43,311 nucleotides of DNA, taken from a virus. Taxonomy: Duplodnaviria; Heunggongvirae; Uroviricota; Caudoviricetes. Shown here piece by piece: positions 3,070-37,356 of the stretch. The stretch is from the IMG/VR virus record IMGVR_UViG_2537561670_000003, positions 1 through 43,311 of that record; one strand, written 5' to 3'. The first letter of the stretch is position 1. Each line of letters starts with the position of its first letter. Below the pieces are notes generated by a model. It saw only the letters and a program-made list of their open reading frames with translations. It was not told the origin of the DNA and made no database searches. The translations under genes and the position numbers were made by a program.

Positions 3070-3385
3070 AACAACTCCTAAATTTAGACAACATGAAGCC
3101 CGGAGAGGTATATAACCCTCACCAGAAATAATTTCTGAATTGGTTTTTAATACATGTTGGGCAACGCCAGTGTTGGCATAGCTATAGTTGTATCAAATGC
3201 CATTGACCACCCACCCAAATAATAATTGCCGACTACTTTATTCCTTTCTGCTCTGACATTCCCACCTGTCATTACAATTCCTTTATACCTAATATTTCCG
3301 TAACCACCAACGTGTCGACAGTTAGCCCCGGTATAAACAATCTGGCAAAATTCATCACCAATATTCAGGTTCGCATTGGCGATAT

Positions 3386-3839: not shown

Positions 3840-6800
3840 TTAACCTGTGAATGAACCAGATCCGTGTGATACTATGATAGTAGGCGAAGAAATTGACGCA
3901 CCCCTGTTATTTTGAGCGGACACTTTAATACGCACTGTTACGTTTGGACCTGTTACAACCGCAGAATGCATGATAAGTCTCTCCATGTCTTGCACGGATG
4001 AACCACTCTCATTGCCGTTAATGTCGATTGTTCCTGCACCATTACCTTTAACGTTTGCTATAACACAGACGTGTCTTGCGTGCCCAGAACTGGATGAATC
4101 ATTATAAGTCATTACCTTTTCTAAATATCCGTCACTAGACCGACTCACATTCGTCCCTGTGTGCATATTTGCAATGTCCCCGATAAAACTTTGGGCTTCC
4201 ACAGTCCCTTTGAATTTACCGCTTGTTGCTTGGATCTCACCAGTAAAGCTACCGCCACTAGCATATACTACACCTCTGACGGTCACATTGTTGAATTCAG
4301 CATCTCCAGCTTTATTCAACTTCCAACCAGCAGAACCAGCTGCATAGTTGTTGGACTGGATATAGTTACCGATTTTTGCGTTCTCAATGGTGCCGTCCTG
4401 GATGAAGCTGGCCCGGATGAATGTCTGCCCGTTCTGGATCACGAACGGCAAAGCTACGCTATTTCCGGCTGCCGTGGTGACGGCGAAGCGGTCAGCCAGG
4501 AAGATAACCTGCGACTGCATGCCGGATGGCGTATTCTCCACGCCGATACCCATCCCCGCGGCGTAATACTGCCCGTTGCTGGAGACACCAACCTTGATGT
4601 TGTACATCGCGCTGAGTTCGCCATTAACGTTGGCTATAGCCTGAGCGTTAGTGGTGATGGCGGAGGTATGCCCGTTCACGGTCGCCGTGATGCCGTTTAT
4701 CTGCGTGGCGGTGGCCTGCTGATAGTCGGAGAGCGTCTGATTCAGGCTGTTGATGGATGCCTTGTTGCCGTTGACGTCCGTCTGCAGGCTCAGCAATGAA
4801 CGTGCTGTGGCTTCCTTCTCACTGACGATCACCTCGTCGAGACGGTCCAGATTCGCGCTGTTGCCGGCGACCGATGCAGAAAGGGTTTTACGCGTGGCCA
4901 CCTGAGCGAGGTTGGCCTGGATTATCGCAATTGCAGAGTTCTTCACCCCGCCCGTCATGCCGTCCATAGAAACGCTGATGTTGTCGATTCGCTGGCCCAG
5001 GGCGGTATCAGCCGTCGCAACGGTCTGCTCAAGCTGACTGAGTGAAGACGAAACATTCCCGACCGTGCTGGAAAGCTCATTAACGCTGGTCTGAACCTTC
5101 CCGACGTCCTGGGCATTTTTGGCGATATCTTTCGCTTGCTGCTCCAGTTCGTCGTTGGCCTGTTTGATATCGTTAGCCATGCCAGCAATTTTTTCGTTGC
5201 TGTCCACCGCGTTCTCGATCAGGTCTTTGAACGTTTCCGACTCTTTCATATCCTCCAGAATGTCATTAGTTATTTCGCTGACATCTATCGAGGACGTGCC
5301 CATGATCCAGTCGGTCCAGTCCCCGGCGTTACCGATACGGTCAATCAGGCGCGCGCGGTACCACTGGCGAACGCCGGCAGGCATGGGGCCATGCTGATAA
5401 TCTGCAGCCGGGTACGGCACCAGGACCAGCAGTTCAGGATTGGCGTAGTCGGCAGTTGTGGCGCGCTGAATCTCTGTATAGGCCGTGTCGCCTGAGCCAT
5501 CCGGAAATTTCCAGGTCAGGTCGATATGCCAGACCACATCTTCGGTCGCCAGGAAGTTGAGCGGAGTACCCGGTTTTCCCGTTTTACCGGAGAGATAAGT
5601 TGTTTCACCGTATCCCCATGGTGACGACGTATCCTGCGCATTCAGCGCCCGTACGCGCACGTCATAGCTGCCCGAATAAATGCCCTGAACCGAGAAACCC
5701 TGCGCGCTGGTAACCGGAACGTTTATCCAGTCCCCGTTGTCCTTACGCCACTGGGCAACATACCGGATTGCGCCCTCTACCTTATCCCATGACACGTCCA
5801 GGCTTGCTACAGTCAGCCCCTGAGACACATGATCGCTCTCAGTCACCACGATATTCTTCGGAGCAGACAGGACGCTTATCGGCGTGACGGTGATCGGGGG
5901 AGACTCGACCCGAACGCCGTCATCGATGTAACGATATTTGTTTGGATCGTGCTGAACGGCCGTAATAGTGAAACCGCCTGTACTGTCGTCGTTAGCCGCG
6001 ATTGAGGTGACCCTGAAGTACTGTATTGCGAGGTTATCACTGTCTATCGCCCAAACAGCGCCCGCCACAGGAACCTGACTGAATGCCGTAGCCACCGTCA
6101 CCGTTTTTTTATCGGCGCTCACCGCGCTGATTGTCCGCGTCTGGGCTTTTCCGTCGGGAAGGTTAACCACCAGCCGGTCTTTCGCCGCGTAGTCTATTTC
6201 TCGATCGAGGGTAATTTGGCGGCCGTTGGCCGCGCTTATACGGCCCCCGTTCTCCTTACCAGAGCGGAAAGGATCGGCGACACCGATAATTTCAGCGGGC
6301 AAAGGGATATAACCGTCCAGCCCCACGCCAAACGATACGGTCCCGTCTTTGGCATTGGAGAGCAATACCCAGCGACCGCGTCGGTGCGCTTCACTTTGCG
6401 AGGTGCAGCCGATTGCGGTCAGGGACGTCTGCCGGACGTCGTAACGTTCTACAAGCGCCGAATCGTAAACCCCCTCAACGGTATCGCTGTAATGGTTCTG
6501 CGGATCGGACCAGGACACCAGGCAGGAGCTGTAGCGATTCTTGTATGAGCCGCCCGCATAAGTAAACAGCCCATCGATAACGTTTGAGACGTTATAAACC
6601 CAGTCAACATCGTCCTGCGGGACGTCTGCCTGGACATAAATCTGATCGTTTCCCCAGAACGTTATTCCACGAAATACCGCGGCGAGATCGTTAAGTACCT
6701 GCCAGGCGTCCTCCTGGCTCTGAATGAAAACGTTGCAGGTGAAACGCGGTTCGGTGCCACCGGCCCCGTCGGAAACCATTTCGTCACAGTACTGGGCGAT

Positions 6801-23742: not shown

Positions 23743-24127
23743 GGAATATTTCCTTTTAGGCGTGAGCCTGTCGCACGGCAATGCCGCCCGAGAGGTAAAC
23801 GCAACCTAACGGCATCACCCAGGCTCACTACTGAAAGACTCTCTTTGATGTGCGCGTGCGATGCGCGTAGAAGACTGATTTATCAACCTGTCTTTATATC
23901 AGGATTCATTACCTGACTATTTGTGGGTAAAGTTCGTAGTGCGCTGATCGTGCAAAATGATTTTAGTTGGGAACAGTTCGCAACTCTGTCCCATAAAAAT
24001 CAGCATATTCCCATCTATCCCATATCCAGCGCATTGACCATCGGGATACTGAAGGGAGATTCCATCATCTCTTAGAAAGATCACCATCTCTTTTGTTTCA
24101 ATTTGCATATAGCTACCTGGAGGATTT

Positions 24128-24742
24128 ATGAATGCAAGGATTTTCATGGACTATTACCATGAGATTGATTTTCCATCTTTATTCGCGAGAGCAGTGGAAA
24201 GCGATGACGATGTGGGTACTACATTGCGCATTCACCTACTTTGTGAGCGCATGGTCGAAGCATGGATATGCGCATGCTGTGACTGCCAAGATCTCTTTGG
24301 AAGAGATAAAAACAAACTTTTAATCGAATGTAATACTAAAATATCCATGGCGGGAAACCTGGGAATCCCCCCGGAACTTATGAAATCACTTAAAACCATC
24401 AACTCAATGCGTAATGACCTTGCACACAATCCATCAATACAAAGCATTGCTGATTCAAGGATCCAGAGCCTGAAGGATACTCTGACTGAATACTTTAAAC
24501 AGCATCCAACGGAACCCAGCATGGAAGAATCAAAACTGGGTATTTTTAACGCCGAGAATCAATTAACCGAAGAAGTTTCCTTAGATAGTGACAGTTCAAA
24601 AAACAGACTTAAGTTAATCTTGCTGTTCAGCAAGTTAATGCAGGCGTTAATGCAATTAGTTGCAGCTAATCATAATGGGCGCTGGGATAACCAATTTAGC
24701 CAATTCGTTTACCATGTGACCATGAACGCAACAAAGAGATAA
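24128..24742 (+). CDS. Hypothetical protein with Rx4H (HEPN-like) motif; moron on opposite strand to late operon
   Basis: 204 aa; GGAGG SD 5 nt upstream; AT-rich flanks; motif R95-N-D-L-A-H100. Convergent with the minus-strand small gene, with hairpins between them. Confidence 0.55.
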   Translation: MNARIFMDYYHEIDFPSLFARAVESDDDVGTTLRIHLLCERMVEAWICACCDCQDLFGRDKNKLLIECNTKISMAGNLGIPPELMKSLKTINSMRNDLAHNPSIQSIADSRIQSLKDTLTEYFKQHPTEPSMEESKLGIFNAENQLTEEVSLDSDSSKNRLKLILLFSKLMQALMQLVAANHNGRWDNQFSQFVYHVTMNATKR

Positions 24743-24810
24743 ATCCAAGCCCGTTTTGTACGGGCTGTTGCATTATCACAGGCACTCAGTGAATGCCTGC
24801 TGTAATGCCG

Positions 24811-25008
24811 CTAGTCGTCGAGTTGCAACACACCGTGATCCAGTGATTCTGAATAGGCGATAAGTCCGGTATAACCGGGGATAATCTCACCATTATCAGC
24901 TTCAAATTCAGGAATTGTGCCGGTGGTGATGGTGTATTGAGGCTGGCCATCTTCCTTCGCGAAGGCTGCCAGGTCTTCAATCTGCTTAGCTGTAAGAACT
25001 ACTGTCAT
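24811..25008 (-). CDS. Small acidic hypothetical protein
   Basis: GAGGA SD 6 nt upstream of the second ATG (MTVVLTAKQIEDL...), downstream of Rz. Confidence 0.4.
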   Translation of the reverse strand: MTVVLTAKQIEDLAAFAKEDGQPQYTITTGTIPEFEADNGEIIPGYTGLIAYSESLDHGVLQLDD

Positions 25009-28060: not shown

Positions 28061-28182
28061 GTCTTTTACCTAAAATTAGTTGCGTGACATACAGATAACT
28101 CTGGTTGGTGATACCAGCAAGAGAAGAATTTGATTCTGCAACCAACAAGGCCTTTAGGCATCAGGCAGGAATGAGATGCAAT

Positions 28183-28204
28183 AAAAAAACCACCCGAAGG
28201 TGGT
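28183..28204 (-). terminator. Rho-independent terminator downstream of peptidase gene
   Basis: Minus-strand hairpin ACCACC-UUCG-GGUGGU followed by seven U residues, about 25 nt after the peptidase stop. Confidence 0.5.
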
Positions 28205-28228
28205 CTTATATGAATCTTTAACGCGGAC

Positions 28229-29128
28229 TTAGCAAATATTCCACATCATCGTACTACCGTTATGGTTTTCGATAATTTTTGCGGCTGGGCTAGTACCAAA
28301 AGAGTGCATATAGCAATGATGAATAGTAAGGACCAGATCCTGCAACGTTTGGTCACTCTCTAGCTCCATGATATTTAAACCAATATTTTGAGCTTTGTCC
28401 AAATGAATATGTCTGGCATGTGCATACGTTGCTTGGTGGTTGTTTAACTCATCACATATACGCTTAGCCTTAGCTTCAGCGTCAGCCTGACCTGCGAACA
28501 TACCAGTACAAAGCCATTTCTGGACAATTTCGTTCGCCCAGAGAATTGCTTTTTCACACTCGCCAATCAACGTTGGATTTAGTTTTTGGAACGTAAATTG
28601 CCACCATTGCAGTGCAGCAGGGTTGGCAAAAATTTCCGCTTTTGCTCTCTCATACTCCTCAATAATTGCATGAGATGATAACCCATTAAACTGTGGATCA
28701 ATTGGCCCCAAGTTCGACTGTTTACCTAAAACGATCTGCTCAGCACAACAAGCAAGCATTGTGCCACAACTCATTGAAATCATAGGTACAATCGCTCGGA
28801 TATTGGTTCCGAACTTTGAACGAAGATAATGACCAATTGATTCTAGAGCTGCGATATCGCCTCCAGGAGTATGGAGTAAGATATCCAATCCCAGACTCGT
28901 ATCTAACCCATTGATAGCAGACATAAGACCATTTTTATCATCATCTGACATCTGGATCAGATGTTGAAACCCAGGCCCCCCTTTTTGAAGGAAGCCTGAG
29001 TAATAAGAAATTACATTTCGGCCAGTATGTTTCGATAAATCACGTAAGTACTTGTGGCGAACCTCATCCGCTGGTGTACGTTGAGCGATAGTACCCATCT
29101 CACCCAATACGTCTATCCAATTTGGCAT
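28229..29128 (-). CDS. ClpP-fold serine peptidase (S49/SDH-like)
   Basis: Motifs LLHTPGGDIAA and ISMSCGTMLAC resemble ClpP-fold oxyanion-hole and nucleophile-Ser regions; low-GC gene in an AT-rich island. Confidence 0.55.
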   Translation of the reverse strand: MPNWIDVLGEMGTIAQRTPADEVRHKYLRDLSKHTGRNVISYYSGFLQKGGPGFQHLIQMSDDDKNGLMSAINGLDTSLGLDILLHTPGGDIAALESIGHYLRSKFGTNIRAIVPMISMSCGTMLACCAEQIVLGKQSNLGPIDPQFNGLSSHAIIEEYERAKAEIFANPAALQWWQFTFQKLNPTLIGECEKAILWANEIVQKWLCTGMFAGQADAEAKAKRICDELNNHQATYAHARHIHLDKAQNIGLNIMELESDQTLQDLVLTIHHCYMHSFGTSPAAKIIENHNGSTMMWNIC

Positions 29129-29140
29129 GTTATCAATTTA

Positions 29141-29347
29141 TCAGTATGAGTACAGTTGGTGAGATTGCTGACCGTTCTGCTCAGTAGTATTTGGTGTTAC
29201 TGTGCTGTATGAATAGAGCACACCACTTCTCACATTCAGATCGTTTTGCTGAGCGAGAACACGCATAGCAAAATGCTGTACGGATTCGCCTTTTTGAAAC
29301 TCTTGGGGTTGTATGCCCATTTTTTCGTAAAATTCAGCAGCGCTCAT
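29141..29347 (-). CDS. Small hypothetical protein co-transcribed with peptidase
   Basis: 68 aa, stop 13 nt before the peptidase start, same strand, AT-rich context. Confidence 0.45.
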   Translation of the reverse strand: MSAAEFYEKMGIQPQEFQKGESVQHFAMRVLAQQNDLNVRSGVLYSYSTVTPNTTEQNGQQSHQLYSY

Positions 29348-29660
29348 GATATGTCCCTCGTTTTTTTCTACATCTATGCAATTCCAGGAGCCATCAACAC
29401 AAGATGTAGTAGTTAGCAGTCGTCAAATACACGAAAAGCCTCAAGATGAGGCTTAAAAAGATTCTTTTTGATAAAGATTTAGCCAAACTATAGCGGTCAA
29501 AATGCAGATTTGACAAGTATAAAAAGCACTTAAAGCCTATAAATAGGCAGTTTTTGAGAATTAAAGCATCTTTAATGAGGTTGAACAAAATGCAGTCTTG
29601 ACGCTGAACAGGACTTTACTGGAACGTAGAGCTAAATGGTTCGATTTCATGAACCAGTTA

Positions 29661-29690
29661 CAAAAAAACCCGCTCATCGGCGGGTTTATA
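29661..29690 (-). terminator. tR'-like Rho-independent terminator downstream of Q
   Basis: Minus-strand hairpin AAACCCGC...GCGGGUUU followed by seven U residues, about 90 nt after the Q-like stop; this is where the lambdoid late promoter and terminator are expected. Confidence 0.5.
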
Positions 29691-29779
29691 AAACTTTGGC
29701 AACATATCAAATATGCTTCAAATATGGCTTATTTTGTTGCATTTTGCAAGCGTGTTTGAAGGAGATGGTGAAATTTACT

Positions 29780-36026: not shown

Positions 36027-36746
36027 ATGACAACTATGCCTTGTGCGCTTAATCTTCTACTTATGGTGGAAAATGCTAAATACAAAGACTTTGCCGAAAG
36101 GCTAAACAGGTCTCTCCAAGAGCAATCTATTGGAGTTAAAGAATTGTCAGAGTTCAGTGGTGTCTCGTATGAGATGGCGCGGCGCTACACTCTTGGTACT
36201 GCAAAGCCGAGAGATGAGAAGATGATTCGAATTGCAGAAAGACTTGCCGTCTCACCGGCTTATCTTGATTATGGTGTGCCTGTTAATGGTGGCGACGCGC
36301 CAGCCAAAGGCACGGTCAGAATAGAGCAATTGGATGTTCATGCTTCAGCCGGTTCCGGATATATAAACCAACCATTCCCTACAATAGTGAGCTCAATAGA
36401 GATTCCAGAAGAGAGGATCTTCGAGTTGTTTGGTCGTAGAAGCCTTGATGGCATCGTCATGATAAATGTTGATGGCGATAGCATGATGCCCACGCTTTGC
36501 CCAAAGGACCTGCTTTTCATAGACAGCAAGGTTGAACAATTCAGCGGCGACGGCGTTTATGTGTTCAATTTTGAAGACAGTACGTTCGTTAAACGTTTGC
36601 AGAAGGTAAAAGGGCGCCGACTGGCAGTTCTTTCAGACAATGAACATTACCCGCCCTTCTTCATAGAGGAGCATGAAATGAATGAACTATACATATTCGG
36701 CAAGCTAATCAGATGCTTACCTCTAAAAATGATAGAGTTTGGCTAA
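36027..36746 (+). CDS. cI: CI-like prophage repressor (HTH plus S24 LexA-like autopeptidase domain)
   Basis: C-terminal domain has catalytic GDSM and a downstream Lys (...VDGDSMMPT...FVKRL...). The ATG at 36027 has no SD, as with the leaderless lambda cI. Confidence 0.85.
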   Translation: MTTMPCALNLLLMVENAKYKDFAERLNRSLQEQSIGVKELSEFSGVSYEMARRYTLGTAKPRDEKMIRIAERLAVSPAYLDYGVPVNGGDAPAKGTVRIEQLDVHASAGSGYINQPFPTIVSSIEIPEERIFELFGRRSLDGIVMINVDGDSMMPTLCPKDLLFIDSKVEQFSGDGVYVFNFEDSTFVKRLQKVKGRRLAVLSDNEHYPPFFIEEHEMNELYIFGKLIRCLPLKMIEFG

Positions 36747-36990: not shown

Positions 36991-37356
36991 ATGAATCATT
37001 TATTCACATGCTCATTTTGCGGAGCAACCGAACTGGGAGCGATAAAGATCGTCGCAAAAGGTGGTAAGGACGAACCTGCCATCTGTTCGGAATGCGTAGT
37101 CACATGTGTAGAAAAAATGATCCTGACTAAAAAATCAGAGGCTGAAAAACCAACCTCTGATAACGAAATAATATCAGTCGATAAAAAACTATTTAAAGAG
37201 CTTCTTCAGCTTGTCCTCAACCTTCCTGATTTCGGAAGTAAGCTGGCTGCTGTTGACATTGATAGTAGCTCCACATCGACAAGTGAAACTTTTGTTCGAC
37301 TTGAGCCAAGCGATTTTCTTCTTCGTCTTAGTGCCGCACTTAGGGCATGCGGGTAA
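36991..37356 (+). CDS. Small protein with ClpX-N-terminal-type zinc-binding motif (first gene of the pL-like operon)
   Basis: ...FTCSFCGATELGAIKIVAKGGKDEPAICSECVVTC... resembles the ClpX zinc-binding domain CSFCGK...YICDECV (recalled). AGAGG SD upstream of the ATG at 36991. Confidence 0.5.
   Translation: MNHLFTCSFCGATELGAIKIVAKGGKDEPAICSECVVTCVEKMILTKKSEAEKPTSDNEIISVDKKLFKELLQLVLNLPDFGSKLAAVDIDSSSTSTSETFVRLEPSDFLLRLSAALRACG

Follow-up and report, generated by a model that had tools for sequence, protein, structure and literature searches.

The window analysed here is a 43,311-nt stretch of DNA from a tailed phage (Caudoviricetes; IMG/VR record IMGVR_UViG_2537561670_000003, positions 1 to 43,311), and the subject of this report is a two-gene cassette on its minus strand that encodes a 68-residue protein and a 299-residue peptidase of the SDH family. 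The stretch was 100% identical to E. coli Nissle 1917 DNA, and the window comprises an entire lambdoid prophage integrated between yecD and yecN. The gene order of the region, all on the minus strand, is RusA, Ant, DUF968, Q, an AT-rich stretch, the 68-residue open reading frame (ORF), the 299-residue ORF and a terminator. The elements of the cassette are as follows.

29516-29487, minus strand: promoter-like site, TTGTCA (29516-29511), an 18-nt spacer and TATAGT (29492-29487), with 10 of 12 matches in a consensus scan
29465-29345, minus strand: leader with hairpin and U-tract, two boxes and a Shine-Dalgarno sequence, its base pairs counted on an alignment of 21 sequences
29454-29436, minus strand: leader hairpin 1, terminator-like, AAGCCTC/GAGGCTT followed by the U-tract
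29409-29400 and 29377-29368, minus strand: the two leader boxes, each 10 nt, near-palindromic and mutually complementary
29359-29355, minus strand: Shine-Dalgarno sequence GAGGG of the partner ORF
29347-29141, minus strand: 68-residue partner ORF ("HP", hypothetical protein)
29128-28229, minus strand: 299-residue SDH-family peptidase ORF
28207-28179, minus strand: intrinsic terminator, a 9-bp stem with a GGGT... loop and then a T-run (hairpin at 28207-28186)

The initial annotation had described an AT-rich cassette of two genes, one of them for a peptidase of ClpP fold and SDH type, and this description was borne out. The segment 28183-29700 has a GC content of 0.41 and the whole window one of 0.516; only 0.66% of segments of the same size are equally low. 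Profile hidden Markov model and structure-prediction searches of both proteins, one of the checks that the annotation had suggested, placed the larger protein in PF01972 with a ClpP fold and the smaller one in PHROG 25714 only, as a mostly disordered protein.

The 299-residue protein matched the Pfam family SDH_protease (PF01972) over residues 22-253 with a score of 70.4 bits (gathering cut-off 31.3; E 1.7e-19) and is a member of PHROG 11747 (E 1e-129), which carries no function in PHROG. The NCBIfam equivalog NF047768, Clp_like_SDH, scored 85.7 bits, under its curated cut-off of 250. The peptidase represents a distinct subfamily within the SDH family, although the RefSeq product name is the same. 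No match to CLP_protease (PF00574) was obtained at E <= 0.01, the Pfam scan gave none to Peptidase_S49 (PF01343), and the NfeD1b_N profile reached 22.4 bits against a cut-off of 40. A phmmer search of the sequences of the Protein Data Bank returned no match. The AlphaFold2 model, with a predicted local distance difference test score of 87.8, has a ClpP fold, and on this model the peptidase shares its fold with the ClpP and S49 families but would belong to neither.

Six residues, S120, H86, D144, H237, H270 and H271, are invariant across 127 distinct sequences, whereas K136, the candidate lysine for a Ser-Lys dyad of the S49 type, is conserved in 122 of the 127. The HTPGG motif (86-90) was aligned to INSPGG of ClpP by hhalign, at a low probability of 5.5%, and by spacing S120 falls at the position of the ClpP nucleophile; the register of the ClpP motifs is given by hhalign and spacing rather than by structural superposition. 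The catalytic histidine of ClpP (MEROPS S14) lies about 25 residues after the serine, and the cassette peptidase has an invariant aspartate at that position, in GPID144PQ. S120 is likely to be the nucleophile and HTPGG the oxyanion motif. K136 varies and the serine, histidine and aspartate residues do not, a pattern that suits an enzyme of the Ser/Asp/His type more than one with a Ser-Lys dyad. The carboxyl-terminal helical half, about 150 residues, is extra relative to ClpP and bears invariant histidines. Only the fold is common to the peptidase and ClpP. There is no gene for an AAA+ partner in the cassette, whose other product is the 68-residue protein. Likewise, SppA and the NfeD protein 1510-N, which are of the S49 type, have a similar fold, but the cassette peptidase lacks a membrane anchor as well as the S49 match. 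Signal peptides and transmembrane segments were absent from the predictions for both cassette proteins, which are soluble and cytoplasmic.

All relatives of the peptidase begin with MPNW, in which W4 is invariant (n = 127), and position 29128 is therefore the correct start, giving 299 residues. The RefSeq entry (WP_223938292.1, 289 residues) starts 10 codons late, leaving out 29128-29099 of the window.

The partner is a soluble, acidic protein of 68 residues with two short helices followed by a disordered tail. AlphaFold2 placed the helices at residues 3-9 and 23-37; elsewhere the model was of low confidence and disordered, and it did not predict a DNA-binding fold. The tail carries a conserved V-x-Y-S-x-S-[ST] motif and the protein ends in LYSY. 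In the consensus of the family a short helix is followed by an "FA+rF" helix and by the V-x-Y-S-x-S-[ST] motif, after which enterobacterial proteins have a polar tail that ends in LY[ST]Y. The Pfam scan of the partner gave no match, and the sole match in the libraries was phrog_25714 (E 3e-40), listed without a function. The partner diverges much faster than the peptidase. A search with the single sequence found just six close relatives; when 1.84 billion proteins were searched with the profile of the family, 280 cluster representatives matched. The 150 best of these are listed, almost all of them stand-alone proteins of 51-104 residues, and none of the 150 is as long as a fusion to the peptidase would be. 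None of the matches that were returned with source names and Pfam data was annotated.

The two genes are found together far outside the enterobacteria. At about 160 loci with a relative of the peptidase, an ORF of 58-75 codons lies directly upstream of the peptidase gene nearly everywhere. A jackhmmer search was started from the 68-residue ORF of the window and run to convergence against all ORFs of those loci, 18,181 in number. It gave 109 matches, one in each of 109 loci, and all of them touch the peptidase gene, 98 on its upstream and 11 on its downstream side; no homologue of the partner away from a peptidase gene was found among these ORFs. In 27 more loci other families of small ORFs occupy the position of the partner, several of which have a comparable S-x-[NS]-[ST] motif. 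Within 4 kb of the pair there is no further conserved gene. The small protein is a genuine partner of the peptidase, conserved across lineages. The gap between the two genes is 12 nt in the window, without a Shine-Dalgarno sequence, and at other loci it is 2-14 nt or the genes overlap, which makes coupled translation of partner and peptidase likely. At loci where the order is reversed and the peptidase comes first (L044, L048, L050, L051, L058, L060-L063, L163 and L167, from Lachnospiraceae, Thermoguttaceae and other lineages), the partner has a variant of the motif, "PxNYxPD...ISYSAST".

The pair ranges over Proteobacteria, Firmicutes, Planctomycetes, Nitrospirae, Verrucomicrobia and the archaeal Methanosarcinaceae, and its carriers include archaea as well as soil, marine and rumen organisms. 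Amino-acid identity is about 50% across phyla, Methanosarcinaceae included, and this suggests that the pair has often spread by horizontal transfer. It is found in sites where prophages and islands classically carry accessory and defence cargo:

several lambdoid prophages: between Q and holin
other lambdoid prophages: between Rz and terminase
Pseudomonas: beside the integrase at a prophage end
Aeromonas Mu-like prophage: between Mor and endolysin
Shewanella: directly 3' of a cI-like repressor
Methylomonas: on the margin of an integrative island with a primase gene
a metagenome-derived chromosome: in an island, beside Fic and YafQ genes

Within E. coli, the cassette in any allele is present in 80 of 5426 complete genomes. 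A search of E. coli with the Pseudomonas cassette as the query gave the same lambdoid copies and no copy in a phage-inducible chromosomal island (PICI), and megablast against deposited phage genomes gave no match.

The proteobacterial cassettes share a conserved, structured 5' leader. About 32 nt separate the promoter-like site from hairpin 1, and about 26 nt the hairpin from the boxes. Across 21 diverged leaders, pairing reaches 95.9% in hairpin 1, where 4 of the 7 pairs show compensatory changes, and the helix formed by the boxes is 83.5% paired with both sides changed at 5 of 13 pairs; one central pair of the boxes appears as AU, GC, CG and GU. The covariation score was matched by 0 of 500 shuffles. 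Of 33 distinct leaders, 32 have a box spacing of 31-32 nt and one has a spacing of 30 nt; the sequence between the boxes is unrelated. The covarying pairs argue for a hairpin formed in the RNA; the fixed three-turn distance and the sequence conservation of the boxes argue for a putative protein-binding site.

The covariance model of the leader, R1, located it directly 5' of the small ORF in cassettes outside its training set, including copies between Rz and terminase, the one that follows cI in Shewanella and another with a peptidase just 45% identical. Elsewhere in the 1.36 Mb of loci searched, R1 gave only weak echoes on the opposite strand of these same sites (<= 35.5 bits) and one 25-bit match 3' of the peptidase of locus L177, and in the same loci it found no leader in phyla other than Proteobacteria. 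An Rfam scan of the leader gave no family at its gathering score; the best matches below threshold fell at the PR'-tR' site and resemble terminators. Outside the leader, the box motif occurs in the window no more often than expected by chance. Three loose matches to the box motif, with 2 mismatches each, lie within 80 nt of each other in the tail-fibre region (3078-3159), probably by coincidence. A degenerate pattern for the box pair had at least 120 matches in IMG/VR, and the cassette was present at 2 of the 120 matches listed. The leader, which is new, and the partner family both appear to lack annotation in the libraries and literature searched.

The limits of the mobile unit were drawn by comparison with two other prophages. 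The features that surround the cassette, all on the minus strand, are as follows.

30490-29780, minus strand: Q (PF06323), upstream of the cassette
29749-29721, minus strand: PR'-like late promoter, TTGCAA (29749-29744), 17 nt and CATATT (29726-29721), phage backbone
29687-29666, minus strand: tR'-like terminator hairpin after Q, phage backbone and not cassette
28060-27869, minus strand: 63-residue winged-helix-turn-helix ORF, downstream of the cassette
27718-26666, minus strand: N6/N4 DNA methyltransferase, downstream of the 63-residue ORF

The PR' and tR' features, taken together as 29660-29749, are assigned to the phage backbone because a relative with the same Q and no cassette retains them. 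The PR'-like promoter and the hairpin at 29687-29666 are kept in relatives of the same Q family, including this one, L300 (same Q, 92% identity), in which homology to the window stops at 29663. In L300, an E. coli elppa4 prophage, the slot between Q and holin holds a different gene (4139-4924), which encodes a hypothetical protein of 261 residues. A second allele of the cassette, in another prophage and also between Q and holin, has about 80% nucleotide identity to the window over 28166-29563. The extent of this homology gives a mobile unit of about 28166-29563. The unit, about 1.4 kb, consists of the promoter-like site, the leader, the two genes and the terminator. The terminator hairpin begins 22 nt past the stop codon of the peptidase and falls inside the stretch homologous to the second allele. 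The initial annotation had the cassette bracketed by terminators: both hairpins were found and the downstream one belongs to the cassette, but the upstream one, at 29687-29666, is backbone.

The promoter of the cassette is putative and is backed by consensus and conservation. By itself the consensus scan was not significant (2 sites against 6.8 expected); however, a -35/-10 pair recurs in many diverged cassettes at an unchanged distance from the leader hairpin. Inspection of the leaders by eye revealed no sigma70-like promoter in the segment from the hairpin to the start codon. In lambdoid phages, Q-modified polymerase from PR' reads through terminators, and by analogy it would read through the cassette. 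In one cassette lineage (L173, L168 and the L120-type loci of IMG/VR), the promoter before the leader hairpin, TTGCA[AT]-17-CATATTTAGC, closely resembles the phage PR', TTGCAA-17-CATATTTGAAGC, and these prophages therefore have two PR'/terminator-like units in tandem. The tandem units hint that late-promoter segments may be transferred along with cassettes.

The cassette is a moron in the sense of Hendrix and Juhala: it brings a promoter-like site and a terminator, deviates in composition and is absent from related phages. Moreover, its presence in 80 of 5426 genomes, the different cargo in the slot of a prophage with the same Q and the variety of slots elsewhere make the pair an accessory mobile module. 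The proposed cargo slot between Q and the lysis genes was also confirmed: Q lies upstream, and holin, lysozyme and Rz lie downstream, beyond a block of two genes. After the terminator of the cassette the minus strand runs through the 63-residue winged-helix ORF, the N6/N4 DNA methyltransferase, holin, lysozyme and Rz, so that the cassette is within the Q-to-holin interval but is separated from holin by that block.

Several other features of the prophage were noted. The 63-residue winged-helix protein (DprA_WH-like) and the methyltransferase form a pair at 28060-26666 (minus strand) just 5' of holin; the best PADLOC match of the latter is a type II methyltransferase (E 5e-142). This block is found without the cassette in about 950 E. 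coli genomes, and the pair may be an orphan methylase that protects the phage, with a small regulator. The DUF968 gene (31519-30491, minus strand) is intact in the window and encodes 342 residues, while a frameshift is annotated in NZ_CP022686.1; between about 29.8 and 36 kb the window and NZ_CP022686.1 differ by one base (coordinate offset 695 to 696). A 121-residue protein at 36991-37356 (plus strand) has a ClpX-type C4 zinc finger (PF06689) that scored 26.2 bits, just below the cut-off of 27. Its gene lies 3' of that for a LexA/cI-like repressor (36027-36746, plus strand) and on the same strand, a position typical for genes expressed in lysogens. A second AT-rich cargo island, at 23800-25000 between Rz and the small terminase subunit, contains four unannotated ORFs of 242, 63, 204 and 65 residues, for which Pfam and PADLOC gave nothing convincing. 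Identity of the window with "prophage 3" of Bury et al. 2018 was considered and rejected, as the gene list of the latter (NmpC, Bor) differs, and the transcriptome evidence for that prophage is therefore not transferable.

Among catalogued systems, DefenseFinder lists FS_HP_SDH_sah, a name that was confirmed. SDH_sah is presumably the former Pfam name of PF01972. The system consists of adjacent genes for a "hypothetical protein" and SDH_sah carried on a phage-related element, and the cassette resembles it in having a PF01972-family protein with an adjacent HP gene 12 nt away. It is filed as a probable member of this kind because of its gene content and its place on a phage-related element. The founder of the system is said to come from the accessory regions of PICIs studied by Fillol-Salom et al. 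2022 and reportedly blocks phages. The cassette, unlike the founder, is on a lambdoid prophage, and the two are compared here by gene content. To our knowledge, the mechanism of FS_HP_SDH_sah is undescribed. A search of the literature on SDH-family, S49 and ClpP-like peptidases and on PICIs and satellites found no paper describing the two-gene system. The PICI system Tai (tail assembly inhibition) was considered as a counterpart and rejected, since its paper mentions neither protease nor SDH. In a 2026 study all Nissle systems predicted by DefenseFinder and PADLOC were knocked out; its text does not name the eight chromosomal systems.

The cassette is best explained, with reasonable but not firm confidence, as a self-contained, mobile two-gene anti-phage defence cassette of the HP + SDH type, carried as a moron by the Nissle 1917 lambdoid prophage. 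A defence function would agree with the DefenseFinder category, and the initial annotation had named defence among its candidate roles. The lambdoid morons between Q and the lysis genes, stx for example, share with the cassette a slot downstream of PR'/tR', a promoter-like site, a terminator, a deviant GC content and patchy presence. Unlike them, the cassette carries a pair of cytoplasmic enzyme components rather than a secreted toxin and uses other slots as well. Protease-based phage defences include Lit/Gol of prophage e14, CapP-CapH and the gasdermin-associated proteases. The proposed likeness to these, a latent protease on a mobile element that is gated by a partner and released by infection, is an analogy only, and their folds (metallo- or caspase-like) are unrelated to that of the cassette peptidase.

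A mechanism can be proposed on this basis. Translational coupling would ensure that partner and peptidase are made side by side, and the two would form a complex. The disordered tail of the partner, with its YSxS[ST] motif and, in enterobacteria, LYSY, may sit in the substrate groove of the peptidase as a pseudo-substrate or bait, by analogy with the SppA structure 4kwb, in which the C-termini occupy the peptidase groove. Occupation of the groove would keep the peptidase latent or set its specificity. A competing phage would then trigger release or cleavage of the partner, and the freed peptidase could degrade a protein of the phage, or one essential to the host, and thereby prevent the formation of infectious progeny. 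In the lysogen, expression would be held low by the leader terminator and raised by Q read-through from PR'. More ambitiously, the pair may be a pan-prokaryotic immune module with a novel mechanism, an ATPase-independent ClpP-fold peptidase gated by a fast-evolving, disordered bait or pseudo-substrate of 60-70 residues, with a proteobacterial leader that makes expression conditional, for instance on antitermination by an incoming or induced phage; this wider proposal is tentative and rather doubtful.

Several points count against the defence reading. The role of the partner, whether inhibitor, bait, adaptor or substrate, is a guess. PADLOC-DB v2 has no family that matched either cassette protein at E <= 0.01. 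The lambdoid and Mu-like copies sit in the late operon, and a terminator-like hairpin stands between the sole recognisable promoter and the genes; both arrangements are compatible with a function in the lytic cycle. Such a function, in which a late protease with a specificity or chaperone partner degrades host factors or defences or tunes late events, would suit the position of the lambdoid copies downstream of PR'/tR' within the Q-dependent late transcript and that of the Mu-like copy between Mor and endolysin. Furthermore, Q-modified polymerase would ignore the covarying leader hairpin, so that strong expression may be late only. However, a cassette with the same leader also follows a cI-like repressor, others are found beside an integrase or in non-phage islands, most related phages have no cassette, and the catalogued system of the same gene content, whose name was verified, is reportedly a defence system. 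A role in the lytic cycle is on balance a minority possibility. An addiction module resembling toxin-antitoxin systems, with a toxic peptidase and a neutralising partner that autoregulates through the two boxes and stabilises the element, was judged unlikely. The small, labile-looking protein upstream of an enzyme across a 12-nt gap, the pair of dyad-symmetric boxes at fixed spacing before the operon, and the occurrence on many kinds of mobile elements and next to YafQ and Fic genes would all suit such a module, but the partner has no predicted DNA-binding fold and the gene order is reversed at 11 loci. We know of no ClpP-fold toxin, which also counts against it. In addition, an addiction module overlaps with abortive-infection defence and is in part a sub-case of the defence reading.

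Lysogenic conversion unrelated to phages, by a protease that alters host physiology, stress tolerance or colonisation, is improbable. The slot between Q and the lysis genes of lambdoid phages carries Stx and other host-directed cargo, and the host here is a gut coloniser; against this, the two proteins lack signal peptides and transmembrane segments and are cytoplasmic, and occurrence in archaea and in soil, marine and rumen organisms argues against a trait of the host niche. The remaining alternative, a morphogenetic protease for prohead maturation with a scaffold-like partner, was suggested by the ClpP fold, which many prohead proteases have, and by profile matches to head-maturation proteases. 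The matches, to phrog_53 (E 0.007) and to NF045542 (16.8 bits, cut-off 120; E 0.005), are marginal and far under the cut-offs, and the prophage has equipment of its own: a ClpP-like prohead protease/capsid fusion in the head cluster, terminase, tail genes and a full lysis set. The cassette also lies outside the structural modules, is missing from close relatives and is present in non-phage islands. A prohead role is effectively refuted. The phage does not need the cassette to mature its heads or to lyse the host, and the view of the initial annotation that it had no obvious role in morphogenesis or lysis withstood the homology test that the annotation had set.

Prophage-borne genes for phage resistance are practically relevant in E. 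coli Nissle 1917, a licensed probiotic that also serves widely as a chassis for engineered therapeutics and for phage production. The cassette is a probable further member of the HP + SDH kind, which is already catalogued for defence without a mechanism. To that kind the present analysis contributes a partner defined as a true and widespread family, likely catalytic residues for the peptidase, a unit of about 1.4 kb and a conserved leader. If the protease is the effector, a ClpP-fold enzyme would join the known immune proteases.

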